A DNA stretch of 64,000 nt from Mobula hypostoma (Eukaryota), in NCBI RefSeq assembly GCF_963921235.1, contig NC_086108.1, positions 69,690,001 through 69,754,000 on the forward strand. Reading direction: 5' to 3'. This document shows, in pieces, positions 120-39,703 of the stretch (position 1 is the stretch's first letter; the number at the start of each line of letters is the position of its first letter). The notes beneath the pieces are model-generated. The model did not search any database, was not told where the DNA came from, and saw only the letters and a program-made list of their open reading frames with translations. A program made the position numbers and the translations under genes.

Positions 120-700
120 TAATACGGAGTTGGCGTCACCGTAAATAGTAAGCGTGTAAACCTGGCCACTTTAAAAAAAAGCTCTCTGTCAACGATAAAA
201 TCTGCGTCTCCTCCCCTCGGCTCAGTTCTTTTCCCAATGAGCAGGCGGCGCTGACGTAGTGGTCGGTTTGTTATCATTCCCTGAAGATGGCGTCGATCAT
301 GGAAGGGCCGCTTAGCAAGTGGACCAACGTTATGAAAGGATGGCAGTACCGCTGGTTCGTGCTTGACTACAATGCGGGCCTACTCTCTTACTACACGGTG
401 AGTGGATTGGAGGTGAATTAGTGGCCTCCGGGGTGAGGGAATGGAGTGGAAGCCGTAGCTCGCTTGTCACCATGCAGGTTTTTCTCTATCCCCACCCGTT
501 CGCCTGTACGGCGGACTGCATTCGTGTATCACACCAACTTAGACGGCAGGGCGAGGAAGGGCCCAGCCCCCGGTGGGATGCAACGTGTGCGTGAGAGACG
601 GCGCAGTTGTCCAATCGCACTCCAAGTTCGTGAACATGGCTTGTCAACTAAAAAAGGCTAGCAAATGAACATACAGTTAATGGGCGGGACTTCTACTTTA
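120..700 (+). promoter_or_regulatory. CpG-enriched promoter / first-exon region of OSBPL9
   Basis: CpG-rich relative to the introns. CRE-like TGGCGTCA 131-138 and TGACGT 252-257; CCAAT 234-238 and 611-615; YY1-like AAGATGGCG 284-292 overlapping the start codon; GC box GGGCGGG 682-688. Confidence 0.65.
287..397 (+). CDS. OSBPL9: Oxysterol-binding protein-related protein 9, coding exon 1 (start of PH domain)
   Basis: Hand translation [37 protein letters not shown] matches the ORP9 N-terminus. 111 nt, followed by the donor GTGAGT at 398 (phase 0). Confidence 0.97.
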
Positions 701-1533
701 AAGGGTCAGGCTGGTAGGTGAGAGTAGGTGAAATAGCTTTAGGATAGTCGAGTGGCCTGTAAGGTGGTGGCTTTGTGGAACAAAAGTACGAGTTTTTTCC
801 CCCACGGCTGTGCAAAATGCTCTGCAGAGCACGGTAAATCCACACTATCAGGTAGAAAAACGATAGGTACACTTTGCAAAAGAATGTAAAACATTCTAAT
901 GTTGTCTGCTGTCCATTGAAGAGTGTCCGTTGCACCGAAATATTTGTTAAACCCTGTTTCCTTTGTTTATAAATGTTCGATGCATTTCACTAATTCTACA
1001 ATCAAAAACTTTGCTAACTATTTATGACAAAAGTATTGTTATATAACTTAGTGTTATATACTTGAACATTTATCTAATTTGTAACAAAATTCATTACATG
1101 TGGACCTGGAATGGGAAAAAAATGCCCTCAGACATTTCAGTAAATTCACGCCATTTTGAAATGTTAAAAAAGAAGTGATTTCATTTTTCTGGTATTGCTG
1201 CTATCCTTGTGTAACATGCAGTCACAATACTGGATAGTTAAGAGACAAATAGCCTTGTTAGCCTTATTTTAAATGAATCCACTTTACTGCTCTTCAGCAT
1301 TGATTAAATTGGTAGGTTGATCCTTTTTCATTAGATGATGTTAGGTGAACATGATTTTAGAATGCCTATCTCTTCACTCGGTGGTGAATCTTTGGAGTTC
1401 TTTATTCTTGTGAATTTGGTTGACAGGTTGGAGATATGTCTCTACCAAAGGAGGTGAAAGGTTATTCTTCCCTCCACTAGCCTGCAGGTCACCCTAAGGC
1501 AAGATGTAGCTCCTGCTTAGCATCCCTGCCGGG

Positions 1534-2315
1534 CAACACATACAAAATGCTGGAGGAACTCAGTAGGCCAGGCAGCATCTATGGAAAAAAGTACAGTTGA
1601 TGTTTCAGGCCGAAACCCTTCGGCAGGACTGGAGAAAAAAGCTGAGGAGCAGACTTGAAAGGTGGGGGGGGGGGAGGGGAGAGAGAAATGTCAGATGATA
1701 AGTGAAACCTGCAGGAGGTGGGATGAAGCAAAGAGCTAGGAAGTTAATTGGTGAAAGAGACAGAAGGCCATAGAAGGGGCAGGGGAGCACCAGTGGGAGG
1801 CGATGGTCGGGCAACAAGATAACATGAGAGAGGGATAAGGGGATGGCAAATAGTGAAGGTGGTGGGGGGAGGGGGTTGGAGGTATTACTGGAAGTTTGAG
1901 AAATTGATGTTCATGCCATCAGGTTGGAGGCTATCCCAACGGAATTTCCCGTCCCCTTGTCCCTCTCTCATGTTATCTCCTTGCCTGCCCATCACCTCCC
2001 TCTGTTGCTCCTCTCGCCCCCCCTCCCCTTCTTTCTTCTATGGCCTTCTGTCTCTTTCACCAATCAACTTCCTAGCTCGTTGCTTCATCCCTCCCCCTCC
2101 AAGTTTCACCTATCGCCTGGCGTTTCTCTCTCCTCTCCCCCCACCTTTCAAATCTACTCCTCAGCTTTTTTTCTCCAGTCCTGCCAAAGGGTTTCGGCCC
2201 AAAATGCGGACTGTACTTTTTTTCCGTAGATGCTGCCTGGTCTGAGTTCCGCCAGCGTTTTGTGTGTGTGTGTTGCTCAGATTTCCAGCATCTGCAGATT
2301 TTCTCTTGTTTGTGA
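1534..2315. mobile_element. Penelope-like element remnant: inverted pair of terminal repeats
   Basis: About 1534-1850 is the reverse complement of about 1945-2270. The centre encodes the PLE C-terminus LQPDGMNINFSNFQ* on the minus strand. Each arm has a degenerate hammerhead motif. Confidence 0.85.
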
Positions 2316-2887
2316 TTTGACCCCTCCCACTGGTCTAGGACACTTGAAGCCATGGGAGAGGGTGATGGATGATCATGTTAGCAGCTAATATACATGACAA
2401 TTCCTGGTTATGTGACCACTGATGCCAGGCAGACAATCTCTGAAGAGTATTGATAATGTCTGGGATGCTCACCTTGTAATGACACTGCCTAAACGAAAGC
2501 AATGGCAAGCCACTTCTGTAGAAAAACATAGTCATGAGACCATGATCACCTATGTCATGGCACAGCACATAATGATGATTATAGCTAATGTCTGAAACTG
2601 GGATTTCTAGATTTCTGGATATTAAAGAAATTAAGTTTTACTAGATAGGTCAGCCTTGATCTTGTTGGAAGGCTAAGTTGGTTTGGAAGACTGCTCCAGT
2701 TTTTTGTCTTCCCTCTCTGTAGAGAGTGAGATTATTTTGGCCTTTTAAAATATGAGTAATCACTATATATCAATGCAGTTTCCTTTACTCTTTATTTCTT
2801 TAGAACCTTTCATTGATAATTGTCCCATGTTGTGAAAAAACATCTGTTTGCTGTTCATTTAATTCCATGCTTATGAGTATATAAATA

Positions 2888-4203
2888 TAGTGGATTCCAA
2901 TTAATTGGGCATTGGTTAATTGGGGCAGCTGCTTATTTGGAACAACTCTTAAAGAGCAAAAGCTATTTGAGAAAATAACTGGAATTCCCTTCATTATGCC
3001 ACTTAGTTGGGATGGGAGACTGTTGCTGAACAGTTTCCAACTAACATCAGTGGTGTGCACTGGTGTGACTGTGAGACACTACACCATACTTAGAGTGAAT
3101 AGACTTTTAAATAGACTTAGTTGCATGTGTTTGATTTTTATCACTGATGTTTGGTGAGAAATATGCAGTAAGGCAATTCAGAACTGTTTTCCTCACAGTG
3201 GTTTCAAACATTTGGGCTTGGAGATGCCAGAAATAGCGGGGAGTGAAAATGAAATAATTTCACTACTTCAAGTTAGGAGCAACATTTGAAGGTATCAACA
3301 ATCATCTTGAAGTTTAGAATGAAAAAGAAGATTTAAAGGTTGCAATCATCTAAAGCATTGTACAAAGGCACTCCATTATCTTCACTAGCTGCCTGCACTG
3401 ATTTTTGTTTATTTGCAGTCAAGAATGTGGCAGTGCACACTGTATGAATTCCTTTGTCAATAACTAATATAGTTTTATGGTACAGTAGAGGTTTTGGTAG
3501 CATTCTGTTTTTTCTGTATTACATTTAAGTACATAAATTGTTACTCAGATAAACAGTTTGTATTTTTTTTTATATCTTTTCTAATTGCCTTGCCTTGCGC
3601 CCTTAACTCCTGGTGGAGTCGTCAGGGCGCCGTCATGACAAGCTTTGCACCAGTCTGTTCCATCTGTCGTGGTTGTGTGCCAGATCCTGGGTCACTGCAA
3701 ATGTTTTCCCTGTCCATTCTTTAATGTTGTCCATCCATCTTTTCCTCTGTCTACCTCTCCTTTTCCCCTCCACAGTTCCTTGTAGAACTGTCTTTGCAAG
3801 GTCACTGGATCTTGTTACGTAGCCGTACCATCTCAGCTTTCTTTTCTTCACCGTTGTGAGAAGGTCTTCATGGGGGCCAATGTGGTGCTGGATGGTCTTG
3901 CGGACCTGCTCGTTTGTGATGTGGTCAAGTATGAGATGCCCAAGATGTTGCGATAGCATCTCATTTCCAATACCTGCATCTTCCTCTGTAGCTCTGCTGT
4001 GAGGGTCCATGTCTCACATGCGTACAGGAAGATGGAGAACACCAACGCACGCAGGAATCTGATCTTGTACTTCATGATGATGCTGCTGTTCCTACACATT
4101 GTCTTGAGTTTGGTTATCTTTGTAATTGCTTCCCTAAAACTTAATTGGGGCAGTTACTTACTTGGGCCAATATGTACTGGCCCCAATTACCCGGAATCCA
4201 CTG
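2888..4203. mobile_element. Tigger/pogo-like non-autonomous DNA transposon, split by an RTE
   Basis: Imperfect TIRs tagtggattccaattaattggg / cccaattacccggaatccactg, flanked by TA at 2886-2887 and 4204-4205. Confidence 0.7.
3589..4114 (-). mobile_element. RTE-clade LINE, 3' fragment
   Basis: Frameshifted ORFs LRALVFSIFLYACETWTL...EMRCYR and KKRKLRWYGYV...GKRRGRQRKRWMDNI; (caagg)n tail; imperfect TSD of about 15 bp (tatcttt[t]ctaattgc / tatctttgtaattgc). Confidence 0.85.
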
Positions 4204-6029
4204 TATTTTTAAAATCTTCATACCATTGAACTACCATGATGACTGTTAATAACAGTGGTTTTACTTTGCATGATTGGACACTGTCCTACCATTGATTTTG
4301 TATGAGAGGGCCCTAACTGGATCTGTAGTAAATAATGAAGTACTAAAGTATTCGTACTTCAGAGTGAAAGAAATTCTATTTGTTGGAGGCAGGTCCCCTC
4401 ACAACACTGAAGTATTTAGATGACGGTTTGAAATGTAATGGCATATAGGCTATGAATTGAGTACTGGAGTATGTAATTTAGTATAGATTGACCAGCATGG
4501 ATATGGTGAGCCAAAGGACTTGTTTCCTTCCTGCGTGATTTTATTTGTCCTAACACTTGGAGCTATCCAAATGATAGGTGATAGAATCGGGTATGCGTTT
4601 GTGTGAATTTTAAGTGTTAGATAATTATGTGTCTTGAATAATGCTTCAGTGGGAGACAGGATTTCTACTGTGCAATGGCCAAAGGAGGGAGCTGAAGTTG
4701 GTACTGTCACAGGTGCTGGTACAAGAAAAGATGTAGTCAATGAAAAGGAGAGATCAGTAATGTGGTCCATTAATTTTTAATTAATGCACAGAATTGCCAT
4801 TGGGTAATGAAGGCTATTGTTTTGCTTTCTTGCTCCTGAAGTGTATGATTCACATTTGTCATAAACAATTTCATGTTTTCATGTAACTTTCATCAAATGC
4901 CTGCTTGAATTATACAAAACCTTCAGTGTGCCTCCTGACTGTGATCTCCTTCATGTATTGTTCACAGAGCTATATACTGTGTTTCAACTATGCTCAGAAC
5001 AGTTTTCATTGTTTTGGCTACAGTAAGGAAGGGAACATTTAGCTTGCTGAGTCTATACTAGTGATGCATGCATGACATAAATCTGTTGGTCTCCTCATGT
5101 AACCTGGTGATTATTTTCTTAGTAGTACTTTTTTTTTTAAAGTGGTAAAGTTGAATCTGACTCCACTATTATTCCTGGCAGTATGTTCCAGACCTAAAAT
5201 ACTGTGTTCATAAATAAGTATCTTCTTTCTCATGACTTAAATGGCCAATCACTACATTGGGAGAGGTGACTGATGCCTCGGTTAAGAAAAATATTATCCC
5301 CACACCCAGTCTATCAAATGACCTGCAAGATTTTTATGTTTCAATAGATCATTTCATTTTTTTTTTGAAGTGTATTGGCCTGGTCTGCTTAATCTCTACA
5401 TCTTGTGACAAACATGCAAAGCCTGGGATCAATCTGGTGAATCTTCAAAACATTTCTCCTTCCCTGGGGAGGAAAGCCAGGCCTGTTTATAATATTTCTG
5501 ATGTGGTTTAAATAATTGGAGCCAGCTCTGTCTCTTGATTTCAGATAGTCTTAGAATAAAGGCTAACAATCGGTTTGCATTCAAGCAACACACAGAAAAT
5601 GCTGAAGGAATTTAGCAGGCCAGGCAGAATCTATGGAAATAAAAGTACAGCCAACGTTTTGACCCAAAACATTAACTGTACCATCAGACTGAACCCATGA
5701 AAACTACCTCATTATTTTGCACTCTTTTTGCACTACTTATTTATTAAAATTTCTTTTGTAACTTGTATTGTTGTAATGTACTGCCCTGTACTGCTGCTGC
5801 AAAACCACGAATTTAACAATGTATGTCAATGATGACCACCCTGATTCTGATTCTTCTCTGAAATTGGTTTAAGGATTAACAAAATAGTTGTGAGATTGTT
5901 AATTTGTGACAAACGTTTCATGTTGCAAACGACTCCATGTATGTTTTCTAGCCTTTTCCATTTGGAGTAATTGTCCATAAATATGTGCATTTTATAAGTT
6001 AAATATTTTCCAGATACTTTCAGAATCAT

Positions 6030-7160
6030 TGGCATCTGTTGTTAAAGTTGTTGCTATGTGCAGTGGTACATTGCAATACATAATAAAAAGAGTAAATTAT
6101 AGTAAGTATAAATATATTTAAAAGGTTAAATTAAATAATGAAAAAAGGAGGGGAAAAAGTAGTGAGATAGTACTCGATGTATATTTAGAAATCTGATTGT
6201 GAGGGGAAGAAGCTATTCCTGAATCATGTGTGTTCCTTTAGGTTCCTATACTTCCTGCTTGATGGTAGCAATGAGAAGAGGATATGTTCTGGGTGATGAT
6301 TGCCTTTAATAATGGATGCAGCCCTTTTGAAGCATTGCTCCTTGAAGATGTCCTGGTTGCTGGGGAGGCTAGTGCCTATGATGGAGCTGACTGAGTTCAC
6401 AATTTTCGGCAGCTTATTATGATCCTGTGTAGTGTTTCTCCCCACAACGACTCCTCATGCCAGACGGTGACGCAGCCGGTTAGAGTGCTGTCCACAGTAC
6501 ATCTGTAGAAATTGGCGAGTGCCTTTGGTGACATACCAAATCTCCTTAAACTCCTAATGAATTGCAGCCACTGTCGTGCCTTCTTTGTAACTGCATTGAT
6601 ATGCTGGGCCCATGATAGATCTGCAGAGATGTTAACACCCAAGAACTGGTTGTATGCACCCTTGTCTTACTATTTCTGAAGTCCACAATCAATTCTTTGG
6701 TCTTACTGACGTTGAGTGCAAGGTTGTTGCTATGACGCCACTCAACTAGCTGATATATCTTGCTCCCCTACGCCTTCTCGTCACCATTTGAAATTCTGCT
6801 AACAACAGTTGTGTTGTCGGCAGAATTATAGATGGCATTTGAGCTGTGCTTAACCACACAGTCATTTGGTGTAGAGAGAGTAGAACAGTGGGCTAAGTAG
6901 ACATCCTTGTGGCGTGCAAGTGTTGATTATCAAAGGTGGAGATGGTATTTCCAATACACACAGACTGTGGTCTTCTAGTGAGGAAGTCAAGGATCCAGTT
7001 TCAGAGGGAGGAAGGGAGGTACAGAGGCCCAGGTTTTCGAGCTTTTTCATCAGAATGGTAGGAATGATTGTGTTAAAGAATGAGCTGTAGTTAATAAACA
7101 GCTGCCTGACATATGTATTAGTATTGTCCAGGTGATCAAAGGCCAATGTGATTGCATCAT
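6030..7160 (-). mobile_element. Rex1/Babar-like LINE fragment
   Basis: RT remnants YVRQLFINYSSFFNTI, PQGCLLSPL, GVNISADLSW, FYRCTVDSTLTGC. Confidence 0.8.
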
Positions 7161-7402
7161 AATTCAAAGAATTTTCGACTGGCGATACGGTCAGTAATGG
7201 GAACTGGACTGGAACAGCATAGTGGCATGTTGTTCCTGTGACTCCGTGGGTTTTCTCCGGCATCCCAAAGACTTGCCAATTGAGAAGTTACGTAGCCACT
7301 GTGTGCAGCATGGAAGCAGGCCCTTCAGCCCAACTGGTCCATGCTGACCTAGATTCCTATCTAAGCTTGTCCCATTTGTGTTTGGCCCCTATGCCTCTAA
7401 AC

Positions 7403-8623
7403 CAGCGGTCCCCAACCACCGGGCCACGGACCAGGGCCGGGCTGCAAAGCATGTGCTACCGGGCTGTGAGGAAATGATACGATTTGGCGATAGGAGTCAG
7501 CTGCACCTTTTCTCATTCCTTGTCATGCCCACTGTTGATCCATTACGCATGCGAGGTCATTACCCGCGTGTCATCCATGTTAGCACGGGAAGGAGATCAA
7601 CTCCTCAAGCTTGCAAATGATGGCGGGCAGAAAAGTATGTGCGACATAGCATCTCTGCTGGCATTCTGGATCAAAGTCAAGACTAAATATCCTGAGATAG
7701 CCACGAAAGCACTGAAAACATTGCTTCCATTTCAAACATCATATCGCTGCGAAGCGGAGTTTTCTGCAATGAATGCAACAAAAACTAGATTGCGGAATAG
7801 ACTGGACATAAGGAACCCCCTTCGAATATTGCTGTCTCCCATCACCCCTCGATAGGACCGTCTTGTTGCAGGGAAACAAGCCCAGGGCTCCCACTGATTC
7901 AGCGATATTGGTGTGTTGCAATGATTTTATATGTTCATATGGGGAAAATATGTGCTGTGTGTTTAATATCCAAACGTTACTTAAAATGTTATGATGATAT
8001 TGACTTACTTATATAACCATATAACAATTACAGCACGGAAACAGGCCATCTCGGCTCTTCTAGTCCCTGCCGAACGCTACTCTCACCTAGTCCCACCGAC
8101 CTGCACTCAGCCCACAACCCTCCATTCCTTTCCTGTCCATACACCTATCCAATTTTTCTCTAAATGATAATATCGAACCTGCCTCTACCACTTCTACTGG
8201 AAGTTCGTTCAACACTTACTTCAAGCTCCCCTGTCCTCCCCTGATAATTGACTTATCACTATATTCATGCGAGGAAAATGTGCGCTGTGTGTTTAAGGTT
8301 AAATTCGTTAGATAAACCCTTTTAGAAACCAAACTGAGCCACTTATCACCTATATTCTGGTCGTGATTAACACCCCCTGCCCCCGAACAGAATCGCCAAA
8401 GACGATTTGCAGGGAAAAAAAATCAGCAGGTACACGCATGCGCACCAGTGCCCGCGCAAGGCTTCATGGTTATTGTAGTCTTTTTCTGGGTAAACACAAC
8501 GTATTTGACTGCTACTCTTGTCCGTTCGCAACCCTACCCCCCCCCCCCCCGGGGTCGGCCGGTCCGCAAGAATACTGTTAATATTAAACCGGTCCGCAGT
8601 GCAAAAAAGGTTGGGGACCCCTG
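7403..8623 (+). mobile_element. Buster/Charlie-type hAT internal-deletion derivative, inserted in an old CR1 3' end
   Basis: TIRs cagcggtccccaacc / ggttggggacccctg; 8-bp TSD ctctaaac (7395-7402 and 8624-8631) with central TA; hAT dimerisation-domain remnant FWIKVKTKYPEIATKALKTLLPF...TKTRLRNRLD. Confidence 0.92.
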
Positions 8624-10114
8624 CTCTAAACCTTTCTTATCCATGTACCTGCCTCAACTACTTCCTCTGGTAGCTCATTCCAAATACTGAGTGCTCTTTG
8701 GGTGGAATAAGTTGTCCCTCAGATTCCTATTAATTCTCTCCCCAGTCACCTTAAATCTATGCTTTCTAGTTGTTGATTCTCCCAAACCGGGGGGGAGTGG
8801 GGAAGGACAGCACACATTCATCCTATCTAAGACCATCATAATTTTATAGAACTCTCTAAGATCACCCCTTATTCTCCTGCGCTCCATTAGGAAAAGTGCC
8901 AACCTGCTCAACCTCTCCAGTACTCAATCCAGCAGTATCGTCCTAAGTCTCATCTGCACTCTTTCCATGTTAATGAAATATTTTCTATGGCAGGGTGACA
9001 AAAACTGAACAAAACATTACAAACATGTACTGAATGTTACCTTGTACAACTGCACTTAATATCTCTGCTTCTATACTCATTGTCCTGACTGGTGAAGGCC
9101 AGCATACCAAAAGCTTTAGTCACCATCCTGTCTGCAAACCACTGTCAGGGAGTCATGTACTTGTATATCTAGGTTCTTCTGTTGAACAACATTCCCCAAA
9201 CCTCTATCATTCATTGTGTGATGTCCTGCCTTTATTTGTCTGCCCAAATGTGTAGACCAGTAGAATCCAGGAAAGTTGAAAGGAAAGTGTGGAGAATAAA
9301 AATGAGTTCAACACACGATTAATGTACATGTACAGTTGATAATTGCGTGAGGACTAATGATTTGAAGGGCCTGTTTCTATGCTGTATTTTGCTTTGACTC
9401 TCGAGACTAGGATTAAAAATACTATAGTCTCGGTTGTGTGTGGGGGGTAGTTTGCACCTTCAATATGCTTTTATGATTCAATTTTTTTTTGTTAATCACT
9501 CTAAAACCTTCATTTGAATTTATCAAAAATGTATAGTCTCCAGTCTCTTGGCAAAAATGGGTTGAAAGTACACAAGAATTAGTTGATAAATCATTTGTTT
9601 AACAATTTGACAAAGATTGTGATTGCATTAGTATCAGGTTCAAGTTTATCATTCAACCATACAAATGTATGCAGTGAAATGAAACAGCATTCCCCTAGGG
9701 CCAAGGTGCAGAACACAGTACAGTAGATACAATCGCCACAGTACATAGCACATAGTACACATAGTTACGATAGCGCATACAGTCACACATAAAATATTAC
9801 TAGCCCATGTCCCGAGTGCCATGGCCTGAAGATTGATTGTGAATGGGATGTTGTCCTGCAGTCAGGTTTCCGCAAGAACAAGCATGTGGCAATATCCTCA
9901 TCTTGTGCAAATTCAGATGAGCACAGTTGCACCAACATGGGGACCTGGCCCTTAACCCAGCACCGATTCCAGGGCCTCTGTTCTCTCCCACACCACCTTC
10001 TCTCCTATGTGGCTGTAACAGAATAACGCCACAGCATGAGGGCCTGGTACATGCAACAACAGAGGCTGTGCATCTCCCTGCCATTAGTCTCACTAATGAA
10101 CTGATGAACAGGAG

Positions 10115-10660
10115 TTGGTTACTGCCTGTTACACCGCTGGTGTAGGGCATCAGTGAAGGTCCTTCATCTCTGTCCTTGGCCATCTTCTCTGTTGTGCCCC
10201 AGGTTTGGTTCAGGGTCCTCATTTCTGCCTCTATGGTACAGCACCAAGTTGTCTTTGCTCTCCCATTTTTCCTCTGTTCTTCAGGGGTCCAATGAAGTGC
10301 TGTCATGATGATGGAATTGGCCTTTCTTCTCATCATGTGCCCAATCTATCACAATGCTTGCTCTTGACTCTGAAGGAGTAAGGTGTTGTTGGAGATTTTT
10401 CTTGGCTGGAAAATTCAGAGGTTCATGATGTGGAATGATAGCCTGGCAAGCTTGTTCTGCCAGGAGCCAGACTCGTAAAAGAGTGTGGACATAATACACC
10501 TCTGGTACTGCTTTACCTCGATGTGGACATTGTACTTGGTTGATCCTGATATGTTGCTCATTGATTTGAAAACATTTCTAACTTTGCTGAATCTGCACTG
10601 GATATTGTCCTTGGTCCCACCATCCTGCCGAATGTTGCTGCCCGGTAGGTAAATCTTCTG
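10115..10660 (-). mobile_element. Degraded RTE-like LINE, 3' fragment
   Basis: ALHWTPE...GRAKTTW...TW...AKDR C-terminal motif. Confidence 0.65.
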
Positions 10661-11164
10661 GTGCAGGATAAGTCGACACCGTATGCTTTATCAGGAGGAG
10701 GAGACTCTACATCGGTGGTTCCCGGGCGAGGGAGTTATTCAAGATTTTTGTTGGCGGGGGGGGGAGGTGGTAAGCGGTACCATAACTTGAGGCATGAGAC
10801 CTGGCCAACTGTTAGTAGAGCAGGCACTTCCCCCAAAAAAAGGTGAGGTACTGGAACATGGAGAACCATGTGCAGGTGGTGAGCACTTGTTATCACAACA
10901 TTTCTGAAACTTGGCAATCTCATCTGACCTTGCCAACCAAACAGATGTTATTGGGGATATATAAATCAGCAAACAGGGTGCCCAACAGTTCCCCTTGAGT
11001 TGCAGTATGGAACGAGTTCATGCAACTTAACAGTTGGTAAGTCAAGTACACCCTCTCAACTTTCTCTACAGATCTACGGAAAACAGGTTGTACAACAATA
11101 CAACGCAGGCTGGAACCAAACAGTGAAATAGAGCCAATCAATGAACCGGCCAAACCTGAGGATT

Positions 11165-11310
11165 CCCACTTTCAAATCTCTTGCTAGCTCTTCTTTCAGT
11201 TAGTCCTGACGAAGGGTCTTGGCCCGAAACGTCGACTGTACATTTTCCTGGAGATGCTGCCTGGCCTGCTGCGTTCACCAGCAACTTTGATGTGTGTTGC
11301 TTGGAATTGC
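11165..11310 (+). mobile_element. Penelope terminal-repeat fragment
   Basis: Near-identical to the terminal portion of the PLE copies at 30195 and 47740-47920. Confidence 0.85.
11202..11237 (+). ncRNA. Minimal type-I hammerhead ribozyme motif, intact core
   Basis: agtc-CTGACGA-a-gggt(cttg)gccc-GAAA-cGTC-gact: helix I agtc/gact, CUGANGA core, helix II, GAAA, palindromic ACGU in place of helix III; predicted cleavage after C11233. Confidence 0.75.
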
Positions 11311-11419
11311 TCTTCAGGTGTTCAAAGCACCACCGTTGGGTATTATGGTCAATTGTGCTAACTGGAATAATATAAAGGTAGCTTGTCGAGCATTTAAATA
11401 TTAAATACACAGCACGCTC

Positions 11420-12570
11420 TACCTCTGATCCTCTGAGGATTGGCTCATGGACCTGTGGTTTCTTTCTCCTGAAGTCAATAATCAGCTCCTTGATCTTGCT
11501 GGCATTGAGTAAAAGGTTGCTGTTATGACACTACTCAGCCAGATTTTCAATTCCCTCCTATATACTGATTCATCACCATGTTTTATTTGACCTACGACAG
11601 TGATGTCATCAGTAAACCTCTCAAAATGCTTAATCAATGTGGGTGTAAATGCTGTTGGGCGATAACCATTGAGGCAGGTCACTATGCTTTTCTGGGCACC
11701 AGTATAATTGAAGCCGCCTTTGAAGTAGGTGGATATCTCACACTGCCTTAGCGAGAGGTGAAAGATCTTAGTGAACACTTGATCAGCACAGGTCTTTAGT
11801 ACTTGGCCAGATAATCCAGTTGGGCTGAAAGCAATGAAGATGGACAAACAACCAATGTGCAAAAGGCATCAAACTGTGCAAATACAAAAACAAAAAAAAA
11901 CTAATAATAAATAAGCAATAAATATCAGCCCTGCTGAAAGGTTTTAGCCTGAAACATCAACTGTACTTTTTCCCCACAGTTGCTGCCTGGCCTTCTGAGT
12001 TCCTCCAGCATTTTGTGTGCGTGGCTGGGATTTCCAGCATTGCAGATTTTCTCTTGTTTGTGAATAAATACTGAGACCTTGACACAGAGAGTCCTTGCCT
12101 TGAGTCCATAGGTTGTGGGGATAGTTAAGTGATGGGGCAAGTGAGGTTGAGTGAACTTATCTCCTCTGGTTCAAGAGCCTGATGGTTGAGGAGTAATAGT
12201 TGCTGCTGAACCTGGTGGTGTTGGTCCTGAGGGTCTTGTACCACCTTCCTGATGGCAGCAATGAGAAAGGAGAGTGCCCTAGAAGGTGGTAGTCCTTTAT
12301 GATGGATGCTACTTTCCTGCAACAGCCTTCCTTGTAGATGTGCTCAATGGTGGGGACGACTTTAACTATGATGGACTGGGTTATGTTCACTGCTTTTTGT
12401 AGGCTTTTGCATTCAAAGGCATTAGTGTTTCTTTACCAGGCCATGATGCAACCAGCCAATATATTCTCCATCACTCATCTGAAGTCAAAGTTCTATATAA
12501 CATGCTGAATCTTTGCAAACTTCTAAGAAAGTAGAGGCACTGCTGTGCTTTCTTTGTAATGGCACTTACG
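11420..12570 (-). mobile_element. Rearranged Rex1/Babar-like LINE fragments with an inserted Penelope tail (about 11926-12063)
   Basis: VLKTCADQ, YRPTAFT, FTDDITVVG, HSPFSLLPSGR motifs. Confidence 0.75.
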
Positions 12571-14791
12571 TGGATTGTCATCTGTTATTTGTTCTCTGCA
12601 AGTCAACCTTTCATGGTTGTCATTAGTAATTTAATTGTAATAATATGCTTGCTTTGGTGCTGTTTGGTAACATGATTGATCTTTCAAGCCTGACACATTT
12701 TATTACTGCCTGTGTAATGAATGATTAGGCTTGGGACCTGCTGAAGTTTCTACATTATTATAGAGTTATGCTGTTAATTATAACAAGTAATAAACAGTCT
12801 TTAAGCCTTGTTGTGTAATACTTTGCACATTACTTAGCAGCTTAAAAAAAAAGTCATTTACCAAAATGTGTATTGTTAGTATGTTTCATATCAAATAACA
12901 CATTTTTCATAAACCCAAGAAAGGATAAAATGCACAGACAACAATTTTTCTTATTCAGGAGCTAACACTGTTAAAAACAATAATTTGCATTTTTTCCTTT
13001 GTTTTTTAATATTTACCTGTGAAGAAACTGGATTTAATCCCTGTAGAAGTACACTGGATATGATCTTCATGTTTCAACATCAGAAGAAACCCAGAAATCT
13101 GATCAACCATGTTGCGTGTCTTTTTTTTCATCTTAGAAAAACTTTTAACTCAGCAGATCAGTGTGGACTTCTCAAATCTTGATGCCCTAAAAATACATTT
13201 CTGTCCTGTGTCTGCACATGATGTTAGACAAGTTGTGGTGGATCCATTGATAAGACAACAGACTGTCCGTCAGTGTAGACAAGTATCAAGCAAGACTGCT
13301 CATAATGACAAGGTTTTTCTTGTTCTTTCAGCAGAATTCAATCTGTCACTTTAACAAGCTTGTCACTGGGTTGCAGTTGATTTGCAAGACAAGTAGGGAA
13401 ATCATTCAATCCAGAACAAAGGACGTTATAATCTCAGTTGTTTAGCTGCAATATGCAGGCAACATTTGAATCTCATGGAGACTGAGCTCAAGTTGTGTTG
13501 ATTTGCTTACTGAAGCATATGAGATGCACAAAAGATTACTGCCAATCTGTTTGTGCTTCCCCTAACAATTGGCTCCACAGTTGGCTCTTGGAAAATGTAC
13601 CCCACTTCCTGTCCTTTGGGTAGGTGGGGAGTTTATTATGGGGAAATATTGCCTGGCAAAGGTATTCATTACAGTTGAAATTCACATTTAGTGTGTCACC
13701 ATGGGCTTTGAGTGATAATTGAAGATATGACTTCCAAGCATAAAGCTCCTGGCTTACAGTGCAGCAGCAAACCCTGTTGTTCTCGACGGTAGCAATCTTT
13801 AGTTACAGGAGAGAAAGAGCACAAATAATCCTATAAATCCAGGATAAACAAACGCATATCAGCATCCACCTCCAGACTAGTGTTCCCAGCATCTAGTTTT
13901 GCTGTGGCTTGTATGATCATGCCAAATTGTTTGTGTCCAGAACTAGATTCCCAAAATGGCTTCTTTATGCTGAGCTCCATTGTCTATCTGGTAATTTGTT
14001 ACCACAGGAGAAACAATTGAAGAATATTGTTAAAGTATTGCTGAAAAGGTGTAACATGCCTATCAATTTGTAGAAATCCCTGTTCAAGTTGATGTCAGCC
14101 AAGAACATTTGGAATTATGGAGAAAGGTAGAGCACATGTGAAGGTAGCTATCTACTTGCCAGTACCTTTTAAATGCTTTTTAAAATGGCTGTTGCAGGTC
14201 TCGATTGCTCTTGTCAGCCATGTTAGAGCCCACGGAAATAGTGGGATCTTGCTTCCATTTAACACTAAAGGGGCTATTTAAGAAGAATAAAGATAGTATT
14301 TGAATTTACAAGTCAAAGGAAACTCGGGGGCATGCAATTTCGAAAAGCATAGATCTAGATATGAGATTTGGAGTCGTTGCCACAAAATGGACCAAGATTT
14401 TGTGCATGACTTGGAGTTGATGCAAGGCTACTGCAAATTTTGACAGGGCGTTGAACAATATCCTGGCTCTGGGCTACATCAGAGTTGAGAAATATGTTGA
14501 AAGGATATTGCACAATGTGTGCTCTGGTTATTGCAGTTTGTTGGTAATTTTTTCATAGCCTTTTAGTTTGGAGAGGAAATCCTGTGAAATGAGTGACGCT
14601 GTCCATATTTTTGCTGTGTATGGCTATTGAATGATGGAAGTTGTTCAGATCAGGATGCATATTTGCACAATGACTTTGTAATATATTTGGTAAATCAGCT
14701 GATCAGTTGCCCATCCTGTTTAGGAGAAATTATTTGTTGCAATACATCACATTTTTCTTTTGCTGTATTAGACTGTAAGACCATAAGATAT

Positions 14792-14979
14792 AGGAGCTGA
14801 ATTCTCCCATTCAGCTGATCCAATTTTGCTCTCGGCCCCAGTCTCCTGCCTTCTACCCATATCCCTTCATGGCCTGACCAATCAAGGAGCTGAATTCTCC
14901 CATTCAGCTGATCCAATTTTGCTCTCGGCCCCAGTCTCCTGCCTTCTACCCATATCCCTTCATGGCCTGACCAATCAAG
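14792..14979. repeat. Perfect tandem duplication, 93-bp unit
   Basis: aggagctgaattctccc...gaccaatca occurs at 14792 and again at 14885. Confidence 0.9.
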
Positions 14980-15353
14980 AAACTATCAACCTCTGCCGTA
15001 AATATACATAAGACTTTGCCTTCACAGCAGCCTGTGGCAAAGAATTCCACTGATTCACCATTCTGACTGAAGAAATACACCCTCAATTTTGTTCTAAAGG
15101 ATGCCCCTTTATTCTGAGGCTGTGTCCTTTGGTCTTAGACTCTTCCACCATAGAGTGGATGTGGAGAGGATATTTCCCATCAAGGTCTTTCACTATTCCA
15201 TAGGATTAATGAGGTCACACCTCATTTTTCTGAATTCCAGTGAATACAGGATCAGAGCCATCAAACATTATTCATTTGCCATTCAATCCTGGAATCATCT
15301 TTGTTAACTTCCTTTGAACTCTCTCCAGTTTTAGCACATTCTCCTTGAAATTA

Positions 15354-15878
15354 GACATAGTCATACTTTATTGATCTCGGGGGAAATTGGTTTTCGTTAC
15401 AGTTGCACCATAAATAATTAATTAGTAATAAAACCATAAATAGTTAAATAGTAATATGTAATTTATGCCAGGAAATAAGTCCAGGACCAGCCTATTGGCT
15501 CAGGGTGTCTGACCCTCCAAGGGAGGAGTTGTAAAGTTTGATGGCCACAGGCAGGAATGACTTCCTATGACGCTCTGTGTTACATCTGGGTGGAATGAGT
15601 CTCTGGCTGAATATACTCCTGTGCCCAACCAGTCCATTATGTAGTAGATAGGAGACATTGTCCAAGATGGCATGCAACTTGGACAGCATCCTCTTTTCAG
15701 ACACCACCTTCAGAGAGTCCAGTTCCATCCCCACATCACTGGCCTTACGAATGAGTTTGTTGATTCTGTTGGTGTCTGCTACCCTCAGTCTGCTGCCCCA
15801 GCACACAACAGCAAACATGATTGCACTGGCCACCACAGACTCGTAGAACATCCTCAGCATCCTCGGCAGATGTTAAGG
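15354..15878 (-). mobile_element. Young Rex1/Babar-like LINE, 3' end
   Basis: ORF MLRMFYESVVASAIMFAVVCWG...ERHRKSFLPVAIKLYN; highly similar to 59496-59980. Confidence 0.88.
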
Positions 15879-18135
15879 GGCCCAAAACTGCTCACAATAC
15901 TCCAAGTGAGGCCTCACCAGTGCCTTATGAAGTCTCAAGGTTACATCCTTGCTTTTATATTCTAGTCCTCATGAAATGAATGCTAACATTGCATTTGCCT
16001 TCCTCACCACAGATTCAACCTGTAAGTTAACTTTTGGGGAATCCTGTACAAGAACTCCCAAGTCCCTTTGCAAATCAGTTTTTTGTATTTTCTCTCCATT
16101 TAGAAAATAGTGAACCTTTCATTTCTTCTACCAAAGTGCATGACCGTACACTTCCTGACACCATATTCCATCTGCCTTTCTCCTGATCTGTCTTGTGTCC
16201 TTCTGTAGCCCCTCTACTTCCTCAAAATTATCTGCCCCTCCACCAATCTTCATATCATCTGCAAGCCTTGCAACAAAGGCATTAATTTCATCATCCAAAT
16301 CAGTGACATATAATGTAAAAAGTATCAGTCCCAACATAGTCCCCTGTGGAACACCGCTAGTCACCAGCAGCCAGCCAGAAAAGGCTCCCTTTATTCCCAC
16401 TCCATGACTCCTGCCAATCAGCCACTATTTTTTCCATGCTAGAATCTTTCCTGTAATACCATGGGCTCTTAATTTGTTAAGCAGCCTCATGTGGCACCTT
16501 GTCAAAGGTCTTCTGAAAATCTGAGTACACAACATCAAACGATTCTCCTTTGTCTGTCCTATTTATTTCTTCAAAGAATTCTAGCACGTTCGTTAGACAA
16601 GATTTTCCCTTGAGGAAACCATGCTGACTATGGCCTATTTTATGATGTGTGTCCAAGTACACTGAAACCTCATCCTTAATCGATTCCAGCATCTTCCCAA
16701 TCACTGAAGTCAGGCTAACCAACCTATAATTTCCTTTCTCCTAAATAGATACCCCTATAGTGAATTTGTTCAAGAGGGAGCTGCACTACATGAGAGCGGC
16801 TTTTGCTGTGCCACAAAGAACAAGTGGCAGCTGAAAGAGGAGAGACTGAACAATAAAAGGACCCAACCATTAACCACAGTCACCACTAAGTCATGCCCAC
16901 ACTGCACCAGAATATGTTGATCCCAGATTGGCCTCTACAGCCCGCTGAGGACCCACTATTAGACAACCCCTTAGGAGCACATTATACCTGATCTGTGATT
17001 GTATACTACTGTAAAGAATGGAACAAGGTTGCATAGAAATGGGTACAATTCCAGAGATACAGGGAGGATGATTTCCTTGGTTGAGGAGAATGGAAATAGT
17101 AGCCAGCATCAAAGTGAGGCACAAGACATTCAGGATTGAGGCAATGTGAAATAGGTTGGTGACTCTTTGGAATTGTCTGTCCAGGAGGAATGTGGAGACT
17201 TGGTCATTGATTGCATTCAGAATTTTATTAAATAGAATTTTGGATATTAGTGGGATCAAGGGACATGACAATAGGACAGGTATTGAGTCAGAAGATCTTG
17301 TTGAGTAGACTTAGTGGGCTGAATGACCTATTCATGCTGCACTTGGATATTTTATTACTTGTGTATATTTTCTTACATTGTAGCAGGAGATAAGTGGCTA
17401 TGTTAGCTCTCAAATTATTCCCTTCCTCATTTCCCTGTAACTTTTTCTTTCTTGTGCCCAACGCAACTAGTTGTCCTGCAATCCATCCACACTGGGGCTA
17501 TTACGGTTTTAAATGTGATTGTTTTGTTTTAGTTGGAGAATTGTTTTTGTATGTGGAAAATTGCGAGATAATTTTAAAAAAAGTACCAGATAGAGAAATG
17601 TTTTGTAAGTGTATAAAAGTATCCTTCTGCTCAAATTAAGCTGGTAATAAGAATTTAAAATATCATGATTTCATTTGTAGTCCACCTTGTTTCTTTTTGT
17701 TGCTTTTGGTTTTACATCATTAGCTATTGTATATATGCTTGTGATTTGTTCATTTGGTGATTAATAATTTTTAAGCCATTGGCTTCTAGGAGTGACTATT
17801 TTCAACCCATGTATTTTTCTCCTGAGTGTCATAAAATGTGCCCCCCAGCCCCAACTGTAACATTTTGGATTTTTTGGGAGGTTTTTATTCTACACAAATC
17901 TATATTGCTTACTTCATGCTCCCTATTTCTAACAAAATTCAAGATTGGGCTTTTTTCCCAATAGTTCATTGGTTAATGTGCAATGAAAGTTATTTTTCTT
18001 CCCTTGTCAGAAAGATCATGCTTTGTAATTGGTTTCAGTATGTGAATTTGATCTGTTTTTTGTTATTGTATCTTAAAATCCGGTTCACATTACTTTTTTT
18101 TCTTCTCTCTCCCCCCCCACCCCCCCCCGCCCCAG

Positions 18136-18186
18136 TCCAAGGACAAAATGATGCGAGGTTCCCGAAGAGGCTGTGTCAGATTGAGG
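18136..18186 (+). CDS. OSBPL9: OSBPL9 coding exon 2
   Basis: Pyrimidine tract plus CAG acceptor; 51 nt encoding SKDKMMRGSRRGCVRLR; donor GTAAGT at 18187 (phase 0). Continues exon 1 in frame. Confidence 0.96.
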
Positions 18187-21174: not shown

Positions 21175-21610
21175 TCACTTGATGTAAGTAAAACCAAGGA
21201 GCTGATTATTGACTTTAGGGGGAGGAAACTGGTGGTCCATGAGCCATTCCTCATCGGGGGTTCAGAGGTGGAGAAGTTCAGTAACTTTAAATTCCTCAGT
21301 GTTATAATTTCAGAGGATCTGTCCTGGGCCCAACACGTGTAATTATGAAGAAAGCATGACAGTGCCTCTTCTTCCTTAGGAGTTTGTGAGAATTTGGCAT
21401 GATGTCTAAAACTTTGACAAACTTCTATAGATGTGTAGTGGAGAGTATATTGACTAGTTGCATCACAGCCTGGTATGGAAACACCAATGCCCTTAAATGG
21501 AAAATGCCACAAAAAGTAGTGAATATAGCTCAGTCTATCACAGGTAAAGCCCTCCCAATCATTGAACACATTTACACGGAGTGCTGTAGGAGGAAAGCAG
21601 CATCCATCAC
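21175..21610 (+). mobile_element. Rex1/Babar-like LINE fragment
   Basis: KTKELIIDF and LTNFYRCVVESILTSCITAWYG motifs. Confidence 0.8.
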
Positions 21611-21616
21611 AAAATA

Positions 21617-23113
21617 ATCCGCAGATGCTGTTGTCAAAGGAATGCTCACAATGCGCTGGAGGAACCCAGCAGGTCAGTCAGCATCAGTTGAAAAGATTAG
21701 TTGACGTTTTGGGCCGAAACCCTTCGTCAGGACTGAAGGAAGAACTTTGGGGAGGGTTTGAAGAATGCTGGTAGTTGAAAAAAACAGTAATTTGAAAGAC
21801 AAAGGGTTGGGGGAGGGGAAGCAGGGAGGTGATTGGCAGGAGAACAATGCGCAGTAGTGGAAGGAGGCGGAACTATGAGGGAGGTGATATGAAATAAGGA
21901 TAGAGGAAGGGGGGGGAGGGAATTAACGGAAGTTGGAGAATTCTATGTTCATACCAAGGGACTGGAGACTACCTAGACGGTATATGAGGTGTTGCTCCTC
22001 CACCCTGAGTTTAGCCTCATCATGGCAGTAGAGGAGGCCATGTATGGACATATCTGAATGGGAAGCAGAGTTGAAGTGGGTGGCTACCGGGAGATCCTGT
22101 CTGTTGTGGTGGACGGAGTGGAGGTGCTCGATGAAGCGGTCCCCCAATCTGCGACGGGTTTCACTGATGTAGAGGAGGCTGCACCGGGAGCACCGGATGC
22201 AATAGATGACCCCAACAGATTCGCAAGTGGAGTGTTGCCTCACCTGGAAGGACTGTTTGGGGCCCTGAATGGTGGCAAGAGAGGAGGTGTAGGGCTGGGT
22301 GTAGCACTTACACTTACAGGGATAAGTGCCGGGTGGGAGATCCATGGGGATGGATGTGCGGATAAGTGAGTTGCGGAGGGATGGATCCCTGTGGAAAGCA
22401 GAGAGAGGTGGAGAGGGAAAGATGTGCTTAGTGGTGGGGTCCTGTTGAAGGTGGCGGAAGCTGCAGAGGATAATGTGCTGGATCCGGAGGCTGGTGGGGT
22501 GGTAGGTGAGGACAAGGGGAACTCTGTCCCTGTTGTGGTGGCGGGAAGATGGGGTGAGGGCCGAAGTGTGGGAAATGGAGGAGATGCGGGTGAGGTCATC
22601 ATTGATCACCGTAGAAGGGAAACCACAATCCTTAAAGAAAGATGACATTTGAGATGTCCTGGAACGGAAAGCCTCATCCTGGGAGCAGATGCAGCGGAGA
22701 CGGAGGAACTGGGAATAGGGAATGGCATTTTTACATGTGGCGGGGTGAGAAGAGGTATAGTTGAGGTAGTTATGAGAGTCAGTGGGCTTGTAGAAGATGT
22801 CAGTGGACAGTCTGTCTCCAGAGATGGAGACTGAGACATCGAGAAAGGGGAGAGAAGTGTCAGAGATAGACCAAGTGAATTTGAGGGCTGGGTGGAAGTT
22901 TGAAGTAAAGTCGATGAAATTGACGAGCTGAGCATGGGTGCAGGAAGCAGCACCAATGCAGTCGTCAATGTATCGAAGGAAAAGTTGGGGAGCAGTACCA
23001 GAATAGGTTTGGAGCACAGACTGTTACACATAACCAATGAAGAGGCAGGCGTAGCTGGGTCCCATGCGAGTTCCCATAGCTACACCCTTAGTCTGAAGAA
23101 AGTGGGAAGAGCC
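21617..23113 (-). mobile_element. Penelope-like retroelement, 5'-truncated (RT C-half, GIY-YIG endonuclease, terminal repeat)
   Basis: GVAMGTRMGPSYACLF, then one stop, then a 364-aa ORF with LRYIDD, LPFLD and VIYCIRCSRCSLLYISETRRRLGDRFIEH; hammerhead-like motif at 21699-21736. Confidence 0.93.
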
Positions 23114-27566: not shown

Positions 27567-30194
27567 GTGTAAGCATTACCTGATCAATGTTTTCTTTTAA
27601 AGATGTTATCTGAAAGTCCAAAGATATGTCCAAAGCCTCAATGTGAGCAATGTTCTAAGCTTTCGTGCTGGTGCCACTTAAATTACATGAACTTAGTAAT
27701 TTACATTACATTAAAAATTAATTTCCATAAAAGGAAATTCCATTTGAAATAAGAAAAGATATTGTTGACTTTCACTACTTTCTCATTAAAAGAGAAATGA
27801 GAGAGTAATGAGATTACAATTAAATCTCTGTATTTTGCATATTTTCCCCTAGACTATTGCAGATGCAAGTTCTAGTTCCTCTCCAAGCCACTAACTATTC
27901 CGGATAAAAATTGATGTTCCTTTGTCATTGGGGCTAAGACGTGCTACTCTCCATCCTGCATTGCAGGAATACTTTCACTAGAAGGAATGTGGTGATTCAA
28001 GAATTTGATTTATCGTTACCTATTCAATAGGAAATGAGGCCGGACAAAAAATGTTGTCCTTGCCATGCCCATAACCTTTAAACTATTTTTAAAAAATTAC
28101 CAATGAAGTTCAAGTGAAGGTTGTTATCATTTAACTATATGTGTACTGTTGAATGAGACAATGTTTCTCTAAAGCATGTAGAACACGTAACACACATGTA
28201 ATGCATAATAACTTAGGAAAATAAGGATAAAATCTACAGATGAATTATGCATAAATAAAGTAAAGGGCATTGAAGTGGACGTTTGAAATACTTGCATGTC
28301 AGGATATATCTGTGGTGAGAGAATCTAGAATTTCATATTGATCAAATATTGATGCAATTCAAGGAAAAACACTGTCTTTCAGTGGCAACTTCTGAATTCC
28401 AACCTAGAATTCAGTAGTTTTTCATCACAGACATCTCATTTGTTTTTGTTTCCATTCATGGTGCAGATAATTGAACTGAGGAATTTGATTATTTGATTTA
28501 AAGCAGACAAGGTTTGTAGACTCTGCTATGTTGCACAAGACATAATCAATTTGCTTCATTCATGTCTCGAGCAAGAAATTATTATTTTCTGTTGAAGTGT
28601 CAGCTTACTTTGTACTGAACGCATTATTAGTCTTCACAATTATTATGTTTACTTCTGTTACGTTGACTAATTACTTATATATGACTTGCACAAAAATGGT
28701 AATTTAATCTGTTTGTTTAGAAATCATCAGTATCAGAGGTATGTGAAAGATGTAATTGCCAAATGTAGTTTTATCTTCAGTTACAAGATTTAAGAACATC
28801 AGTGTTGGTCATCAATAATGCAATGAAATTCAAGGTCATGTCATTCCATTTTCATGAATGAATTAAATGTTAAATATTTTATATCGGAAATTAAAATTTG
28901 TTCTGTGTAACCTTTTGTATTCATCTTTGAAGGCTCTTTGTTATTTTCTACTTTATTGAGTAAGTGCTTATTCAAGGGGAGGTAGGAGGGAAGAACTGAA
29001 AGGAGGGTCTGTGTTAGCACTGAAGGAAGGAGAGACTGACATGACCAATAGATTAAGATACAATGCACAGGTATGATAATGGAACAAGGAAAGAAACATA
29101 AGATGGGTTGATAAGAGATGTAAATTGCAGCAATGGAATCGTTACTGATAGCAGTTGTCCAAATAAATTAGTATTAATAATTTCATATAATTATTGTCGA
29201 TTCAATGTTGAGTGTGTGGCACTTTAAATGTATCCACCTGAAAGATGAGGCGCAGTTCCTTGAACTTCCTCTGAGCATCATTAGAATGCTAAATAGGAGG
29301 GTGGGAGAGTTCAAGGGCAAGAGGGTTGGTATGAAGTGGTAGAGAGTTAACGTGACAGGAAGCTCTGATCGTGTTTGCAGACTGAACAAAGGTATTTCAC
29401 AGTAATGGTATTATAATTAAATGAAGTTCAGAGCTTAAAGAACAGATGCACCACTAACATGTATAGCAGCAAATGGCAATTACTCTCCTCTTGGCACAGA
29501 TTTGAAATCATTTAGCCATTTGAGCTACTCTTATACACAGTACTTGCTAAATGTAGAATTTTGTTTCTTAATGTTGATCATGGATTCTGCAATCCATTGC
29601 AAGTATTATGAGCACAAGCTGTTCCCTTACACAGAACAAAATGTGCATAATTTCTGAACAAGCTTAATTTACGTTACTACTGAGTATGTAACCCAGCCTT
29701 AATTTTTTTAGAAAGTTTATATAGAGCTGTGTGATATACTGGAGGATCCTTTAGCACTGATCAATGATAAATTAAGTACTGCTGCCTGAACATAACTGCA
29801 GGTCACCCGCATGTTTTGTATAGGAAACAAAGTTAAGATGGGGAACCACGCAACTCATAGAAAATCAGCAACGTTGCATAAAGTAAATGTTCTCGGACAA
29901 TATTTGACATTCCTTGAAACTCTGATTCTGAGTAAACCCATTCAGAAGAAATACTACTTTGAGTTAAAGTATGTGGTATTCTACATAATGAAAGCCATCT
30001 TTGGCATCCTCAGTTATAACACAGTCACAGAATTTCATGAATTCAATTTAAAGCAGGCCAAGGTAATTTACCAAATGCTGCCATACCCTTCGAATGTAAT
30101 CTGTATTGAATTCGGACTGATTTTATAGCTGTCCATGTGGTCCTGTTACTGTGCTAAATAGGGCAGACTAGGAAAACAATATAGAACAGCACAG

Positions 30195-31600
30195 ACAACA
30201 GGAATTCTGCAGATGCTGGAAATTCAAGCAACACACATAAAAGTTGCTGGTGAACGCAGCAGGCCAGGCAGCATCTCCAGGAAGAGGTACAGTCGACATT
30301 TCAGGCCGAGACCCTTCATCAGAACTAACTGAAGGAAGAGTGAGTAAGGGATTTAAAAGTTGGAGGGGGAGATCCAAAATGATAGGAGAAGACAGGAGGG
30401 GGAGGGATGGAGCCAAGCGCTGGACAGGTGATAGGCAAAATGGATACGAGAGGCTCATGGGACAGGAGGTCCGGGAAGAAAGACAAGGAGGGCAGTGGGG
30501 GGAGGACCCAGAGGCTGGGCAAAGGGTATATTCAGAGGGACAGAGGGAGAAAAAGGAGAGTGAGAGAAAGAATGTGTATAAAAATAAGTAACAGATGGGG
30601 TACGAGGGGGAGGTGGGGCATTAGCGGAAGTTAGAGAAGTCGATGTTCATGCCATCAGGTTGGAGGCTACCCAGACGGAATATAAGGTGTTGTTCCTCCA
30701 ACCTGAGTGTGGCTTCATCTTTACAGTAGAGGAGGCTGTGGATAGACATGTCGGAATGGGATGTGGAATTAAAATGTGTGGCCACTGGGAGATCCTGCTT
30801 TCTCTGGCGGACGGAGCGTAGGTGTTCAGCAAAGCGGTCTCCCAGTCTGCGTCGGGTCTCACCAATATATAAAAGGCCGCATCGGGAGCACCGGATGCAG
30901 TATATCACCCCAGCCGACTCACAGGTGAAGTGTTGCCTCACCTGGAAGGACTGTTTGGGGCCCTGAATGGTGGTAAGGGAGGAAGTGTAAGGGCATGTGT
31001 AGCACTTGTTCCGCTTACACGATAAGTGCCAGGAGGGAGATCAGTGGGGAGGGATGGGGGGGACGAATGGACAAGGGAGTCACGTAGGGAGCGATTCCTG
31101 CGGAATGCGGGGGGGGGGGGAGGGAAAGATGTGCTTAGTGGTGGGATCCCATTGGAGGTGGCGGAAGTTACGGAGAATAATATGTTGAACCCGGAGGCTG
31201 GTGGGGTGGTAGGTGAGGACCAGGGGAACCCTATTCCTAGTGGGGTGGCGGGTGGATGGAGTGAGAGCAGATGTATGTGAAATGAGGGAGATGCGTTTAA
31301 GAGCAGAGTTGATAGTGGAGGAAGGGAAGCCCCTTTGTTTAAAAAAGGAAGACATCTCCCTCGTCCTAGAATGAAAAGCCTCATCCTGAGAGCAGATGCG
31401 GCGGAGACGGAGGAATTGCGAGAAGGGGATGGCGTTTTTGCAAGAGACAGGGTGAGAAGAGGAATAGTCCAGATAGCTGTGAGAGTCAGTAGGCTTATAG
31501 TAGACATCAGTGGATAAGCTGTCTCCAGAGACAGAGACAGAAAGATCTAGAAAGGGGAGGGAGGTGTTGGAAATGGACCAGGTAAATTTGAGGGCAGGGT
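30195..31600 (-). mobile_element. Penelope-like retroelement, 5'-truncated, inserted in a CR1 3' tail
   Basis: HPALKFTWSIS...LPFLD, GVIYCIRCSRCGLLYIGETRRRLGDRFAEH; 11-bp TSD gaacagcacag at 30184-30194 and 31601-31611. Confidence 0.93.
30291..30326 (-). ncRNA. Minimal hammerhead motif in the Penelope terminal repeat
   Basis: Minus strand reads agtt-CTGATGA-agggtctcggcct-GAAA-tGTC-gact. Confidence 0.65.
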
Positions 31601-39624: not shown

Positions 39625-39703
39625 GGAGCTGTGATTGGTATAGACGATGAGGATGACAGCACCTTCACGGTCACTGTGGATCAGAAGACATTCCATTTTC
39701 AAG
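39625..39703 (+). CDS. OSBPL9: OSBPL9 coding exon 3
   Basis: Acceptor tctctctttcacag; 79 nt encoding [26 protein letters not shown] plus 1 nt; donor GTGAGA at 39704 (phase 1). Confidence 0.96.

Follow-up and report, generated by a model that had tools for sequence, protein, structure and literature searches.

The window analysed here, a stretch of 64,000 nucleotides from Mobula hypostoma, contains a real minimal hammerhead ribozyme of a known class, which lies in a dead fragment of a Penelope-like element (PLE) and is very probably an inert passenger in its host gene. The motif, its host intron, its family membership, the copy number of the family, the location of the motif 3' of a reverse transcriptase (RT)-endonuclease frame and the lack of a competent partner in the intron are established.

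The hammerhead motif and its host intron

The motif (11202-11237, + strand, 36 nt) can be read directly from the sequence as a complete minimal type I hammerhead. Helix I pairs AGUC (11202-11205) with GACU (11234-11237), a fifth U-G pair being possible; the core CUGACGA (11206-11212) is followed by an extra A (11213) between positions 9 and 10.1; helix II consists of 4 bp between GGGU (11214-11217) and GCCC (11222-11225) with the loop CUUG, its G10.1-C11.1 pair being G11214-C11225; and GAAA (11226-11229) leads into C-G-U-C, of which C17 is 11233, the scissile bond being predicted from the sequence at 11233/11234. The palindrome ACGU (11229-11232) leaves no room for a helix III loop, and an intramolecular helix III is absent. 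A longer palindrome, GUCGAC (11231-11236), overlaps the cut site, and a non-productive dimer is possible.

A descriptor comprising the core, a helix I of at least 4 bp and a helix II of at least 3 bp matched the window twice (11206, + strand, and 30322, - strand), as against a single match in 300 dinucleotide shuffles; together with the sequence itself, this bears out the claim of an earlier note on this DNA that an intact minimal hammerhead is present on the sense strand. The folding energy of the 36-mer is unremarkable (z = -1.27). A search with hammerhead models, for which the earlier note had called, gave a divided answer: the descriptor recovers the motif, but Rfam models produced no match at the gathering score in the 64-kb window, hence no hammerhead family, and merely two matches below threshold, both unrelated, between 11100 and 11350.

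The host is an OSBP-related gene, of which the first coding exon (287-397, + strand, an exon call that includes the start of the PH domain), the second (18136-18186, + strand) and a further one (39625-39703, + strand) all have GT/AG borders. Since the three coding exons are all on the + strand, the motif is in sense orientation in the intron 398-18135. PH and Oxysterol_BP domains were detected in the gene, the end of which is approximately 198.6 kb from the start of the window. The location given in the earlier note, the sense strand of OSBPL9 intron 1, holds as regards the strand, the first coding intron and the OSBP-related gene; an upstream non-coding exon is possible. The paralogue is probably OSBPL9. 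PLE fragments in the host gene number 15 in sense and 17 in antisense orientation (5 and 3, respectively, with an intact core), giving no sign that sense copies have been purged, one gene being a small sample for strand bias. Elsewhere in the window, a low-complexity tract of 1.1 kb (58381-59490) is rich in C and extremely GC-skewed, and 7405-8620 is the decayed remnant of a hAT transposon, in which a weak match to Dimer_Tnp_hAT (7478-7852) falls below the cut-off.

The Penelope-like family and its copies

The motif lies within a 5'-truncated PLE end of subfamily A (11164-11308, + strand, approximately 140 bp), 89-92% identical over 137-145 nt to three other copies in the window. Its borders, some 70 nt ahead of the cut site and at about +70 beyond it, are uncertain by a few bases owing to microhomology. 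The fragment interrupts an older interspersed repeat (10760-11166, resuming at 11311) that is about 80% identical to its paralogues; in all 10 of the paralogues inspected (11 were retrieved), the sequence passes from the equivalent of 11166 straight into the match of 11311 onward, as expected of an empty site. A likely 7-bp target-site duplication, GGATTCC (11160-11166, + strand) on the left and GAATTGC (11304-11310, + strand) on the right, has arms identical at 5 of 7 positions and contains ATT. Two low-depth contig joints that skip the insertion were considered as an empty allele or insertion polymorphism and set aside, the host-repeat paralogues explaining the joints equally well. No tandem array was found at 11164-11308, which is a single fragment. 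A variant base 17 nt past the cut is common to three of the four full-motif subfamily A copies in the window (11250, 30278 and 47829); it occurs in 6 of 73 sampled copies, the window's three included, and may reflect local copying or a minor subfamily.

A longer subfamily A copy (30190-31646, - strand) contains a broken frame for the RT C-terminus and a GIY-YIG endonuclease (E = 8.5e-6), a 3' UTR and a hammerhead at 30326-30291, and by joining the hammerhead to the GIY-YIG frame it links the motif to a PLE. This attachment supports the earlier note's assignment to the minimal type I hammerheads of PLEs, a kind thought to act as dimers. Among 50 motif loci chosen by exact match, 25 align unbroken into the GIY-YIG frame, the rest being shorter or having inverted 5' parts. 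A related frame from the window used as a query against the genome yielded 229,737 first-look candidates; scoring was carried out on 112 of them, and a related motif was found on the same strand approximately 195-270 nt past the stop in 19 of 20 RT-endonuclease loci retrieved. RT was matched weakly, below the Pfam cut-off, by a stretch of 734 aa (E = 8.3e-6), and no PDB match was found for the protein of about 730 aa. A CX3CXXC linker (CKRKCYTC) precedes GIY-YIG in a sister-subfamily copy (P0001); such linkers (CX2-5CxxC) between RT and GIY-YIG mark the Neptune/Nematis PLEs and not Poseidon (PMC8557442), and by its linker the element appears to bear the mark of the Neptune/Nematis clade. No complete repeat-frame-repeat copy was found in the 32 ten-kb stretches examined. 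Another copy in the window (21601-23023, - strand), of subfamily B, has an open RT-GIY-YIG frame of 366 codons and a motif with G12A.

The family is very large. The 32-mer of the motif has 857 exact matches in the 3.48-Gb genome, its form with all CpGs intact has 4,891, and 91,243 copies, evenly divided between the strands and occurring about once in every 38 kb, differ from it only at five CpG positions. A sample of 73 copies was assembled by anchors outside the motif, leaving out the central matches of the exact-match searches (with the 32-mer, its CpG-intact form and the A6C lineage), and is enriched for tandem-unit loci; its median divergence is 5%, its core is intact in 58 copies, and core and helices are intact in 39. 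The earlier note's implication that an intact copy is rare is therefore wrong: an intact core is the norm in this family, of which the flagged copy is a typical and young representative. G8, a core position within a CpG, is lost in 6 of the 73 copies, compared with 6-10 at three CpGs outside the invariant core, and decays like other CpG sites. Non-CpG core cells vary in 10 of 730 instances, compared with 68 of 2,482 in the flanks, a difference that fits selection on source elements, with post-insertion selection possible too, in copies that are not independent. Inspection by eye of the first 100 rows of CpG-variant copies, all near the beginning of one contig, showed C11.1U, which retains a G-U pair, in 75 and G12A, in the same CpG, in 5. 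This bias, the constancy of the core and the helices shared by three subfamilies that are approximately 20-25% apart and differ in loop II and flanks (in rows already filtered for a portion of the motif) are consistent with selection acting on elements that amplify, again among copies that are not independent. The earlier note had named a lack of covariation in helices I and II across the family as counting against its reading; within this genome no covariation was found, only one of eight pairs being double-changed, a value equalled or exceeded in 197 of 500 shuffles (69 distinct rows from three subfamilies, pre-filtered for part of the motif, with helices that hardly vary).

Two relatives of the motif were also noted. 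A non-coding unit of 324-349 nt, comprising the motif region, the tail and a spacer of about 140 nt, forms head-to-tail pairs at L186:4733-5214, L200:4944-5455 and L190:4994-5556, with both cores intact in L186 and L200; units of about 340 nt number 2,476 first-look candidates. The sequence past the tail was at first a candidate for the start of the PLE frame, but it is the spacer of this short tandem unit and was not placed on a long PLE copy. The unit resembles a non-LTR retrozyme derived from a PLE end. The second relative is an older PLE lineage whose hammerhead core reads CUGCYGA, with C in position 6, and which has been amplified to 825 exact matches; among the first 100 of 3,155 matches to an upstream signature, 69 have C6 and 22 have A6 by eye. 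Copies of the A6C lineage occur in the window at 1593-1632 (- strand), 2177-2212 (+ strand) and 11927-11962 (+ strand), and also at L071-L095.

Ends of copies were examined for a trace of cleavage. The number of copy 5' ends at the cut site genome-wide (182) does not exceed the number at +7 by the same design (208) and compares with 163 at about -8 by a slightly different design; by eye, about 27 of the first 100 cut-site rows represent inversions whose joint runs through the arms of helix I, and 182 would thus rather be an overestimate. Among tandem-unit loci, 5' ends had seemed to gather close to the cut, but the genome-wide count did not bear this out. Copies run through the cut site, implying templates that were uncut or rejoined, which agrees with the finding in Anolis carolinensis that insertion requires no cleavage (PMC11167929). 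Among short copies, 5' ends concentrate at helix I's outer edge (17 of 141 lie at -34 to -30 from the cut) rather than at the cut site, and the arms of helix I serve as microhomology in many of the inversion joints. The 3' ends over 49 loci are bimodal, 25 at +50 to +75 and 24 at +95 to +116 from the cut site, and the fragment at 11164-11308 belongs to the first, proximal class.

These features can be compared with known systems. The minimal hammerheads of metazoan PLEs (Cervera and De la Pena 2014, PMC4209133) share with the Mobula family a type I core (CUGANGA, GAAA, UH), a helix I of 4-5 bp, an extra base between positions 9 and 10.1, G10.1-C11.1, a palindrome at 15.2-16.2 and no loop III, a position in the pseudo-LTR or terminal repeat of an element that encodes RT together with a GIY-YIG domain at the C-terminus, and a predominance of single dispersed copies from truncated elements. 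The two differ in the length of helix II (4 bp, compared with 7-8 bp in S. mansoni families), in copy number (91,243 very uniform copies, compared with about 4,000 in coelacanth and about 9,000 in Xenopus) and, as far as helices that hardly vary can show, in the lack of covariation within this genome. Poseidon_Ac of Anolis carolinensis (Frangieh et al. 2024, PMC11167929) has a hammerhead upstream of two internal RT starts, which produce a 30-40-nt tail, prefers ATT targets, as at the Mobula insertion, and inserts from uncut RNA; the two 3'-end classes of the Mobula family, about 35 nt apart, and its lack of a breakpoint excess at the cut are as in Poseidon_Ac, whereas its linker is that of Neptune/Nematis. 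Non-LTR retrozymes (PMC7229834; Li, Clavereau and Pollet, bioRxiv 10.64898/2026.07.22.740005) are tandem arrays of hammerhead-bearing units of about 150-400 nt to which the sister unit of about 325-350 nt corresponds, unlike the flagged copy, a lone fragment within the part common to the PLE and the short unit. The domesticated hammerheads of amniotes (RECK and others) are likewise type I, intronic and on the sense strand, but are low-copy, canonical, equipped with tertiary contacts and conserved at orthologous sites (PMC6155905), while the flagged motif is minimal, belongs to a young high-copy repeat and has neither a canonical fold with stable helix III nor a low copy number. The literature searched yielded nothing specific on this Mobula family or on PLE hammerheads of cartilaginous fish, the 2026 preprint including one chondrichthyan.

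Partners and folding of the intronic copy

Because each core of a dimer cuts the other strand, the flagged copy depends on a partner whose core is functional and whose helices match. The degenerate sense copy that the earlier note had seen about 720 nt downstream was located at 11927-11962, 725 nt away, within a decayed PLE end of subfamily C (11926-12063, + strand). The partner role offered for it does not stand: it belongs to another subfamily, has the core CUGCUGA (A6C) and ACAU in helix III, and would form three non-canonical pairs in the dimer helices, and its cofold with the motif (-17.7) is less stable than the two monomers (-19.3). No other core-intact hammerhead was found on the sense strand of intron 1, the lone additional CUGANGA...GAAA string (1642) being without helices; two other substrate-like strings on that strand are wobble-only and hence offer no matching substrate. 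About 73 kb separate the motif from the closest sense copy with an intact core, which is downstream, past exon 4, in another intron. With no competent partner in intron 1, the proposal that the pre-mRNA is cleaved after C11233 is left unsupported.

Folding of the lone motif is predicted to favour a decoy in which the core GACG pairs with its own CGUC, with probability 0.99 in a 38-mer and 0.49-0.79 in contexts of 250-650 nt. The active homodimer is predicted at -16.7 kcal/mol and two folded monomers at -25.8 kcal/mol. Taking such energies as proof of inactivity was rejected: the natural tandems, forced into the active dimer, likewise lie 20-27 kcal/mol above the minimum-energy fold, which indicates that the model undervalues the hammerhead junction and that the energies do not decide. 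Among related ribozymes, lone minimal motifs were uncut and dimers cleaved weakly (PMC4209133), and one of nine Xenopus dimers was cleaved (bioRxiv 10.64898/2026.07.22.740005). The four runs examined for expression, of six on record, consist of contigs, which reveal neither ends nor strand nor level and weigh neither way on cleavage.

Competing explanations and significance

The history that best accounts for the flagged copy would begin with the element's enzyme nicking an ATT-containing site in the older repeat, where reverse transcription would have started about 70 nt downstream of an uncut ribozyme and stopped after about 140 nt. In tandem transcripts of source elements, two motifs may pair through ACGU, each core cutting the other strand, probably with the aid of a PLE protein. 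In the lone intronic copy, G5-A6-C7-G8 is predicted to fold onto its own C15.2-G-U-C17 strand, and the copy would be spliced out and degraded uncut. Its core and helices are complete, and plentiful partners in trans are conceivable in the nucleus, which could speak against inertness.

Occasional cutting of the copy in trans, when it pairs with another PLE-derived RNA through ACGU and helix I or when a PLE protein is present, with the gene unaffected because splicing tolerates slow cuts in introns, is unlikely. Partners could be abundant: G8 and G12 both persist in 89 of the first 100 CpG-variant rows (by eye, from the beginning of one contig), or roughly nine-tenths of the 91,243 copies. Splicing still took place in transcripts that a hammerhead had cut within an intron (PMC2995048, citing Dye 2006 and Fong 2009), and the Poseidon hammerhead of Anolis cleaves when its PLE protein is present, though solely then (PMC11167929). 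Against such cutting, no RNA-seq reads ended at the Poseidon cut site (PMC11167929); in Mobula no unbroken full PLE frame was found among the 112 scored matches, the longest being 813 aa with a stop, and the protein is perhaps no longer made. The unfavourable energy of the homodimer also counts against cutting in trans. A stronger form of the earlier note's reading, in which the copy, paired in cis with that at 11927 or with some other neighbour, cleaves the OSBPL9 pre-mRNA and so regulates the gene, draws on the sense orientation, the intact core, the proximity of a related copy and the precedent of intronic amniote hammerheads, but it is extremely unlikely: beyond the mismatched helices and poor cofold of that partner, A6C strongly slowed Mg2+ cleavage in two other hammerheads, favouring Mn2+ over Mg2+ (PMC7151607), the nearest core-intact sense copy is in another intron, and the flagged copy is young and unexceptional in a huge family.

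It is likewise extremely unlikely that the motif resembles a hammerhead by chance, or that the family's ribozyme died long ago and persists solely as a protein-binding structure. The lack of covariation, of an Rfam match and of any breakpoint trace of cleavage would suit such readings, as would amplification of the C6 lineage, but they are opposed by the rarity of descriptor matches in shuffled sequence, by the presence of all the hallmarks described by Cervera and De la Pena, by the retention of helices among divergent, pre-filtered subfamilies and by the amplification of the tolerated C11.1U while G12A is rare. A grander possibility, that, of some 80,000 core-intact, compatible hammerheads, those on intron sense strands, the flagged copy among them, form a latent network, switched on in trans by PLE RNA or protein and cutting many pre-mRNAs together, is very unlikely.

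The single locus carries little weight alone, since the genome has tens of thousands of such relics, all equivalent, and their class was already described in 2014. The approximately 90,000 uniform copies in one genome nevertheless give power for testing intron strand bias and cleavage in vivo, and the natural tandems L186 and L200, with two intact motifs each, are ready-made dimer substrates. The amplified A6C lineage poses the question of whether a normal core is needed for retrotransposition.
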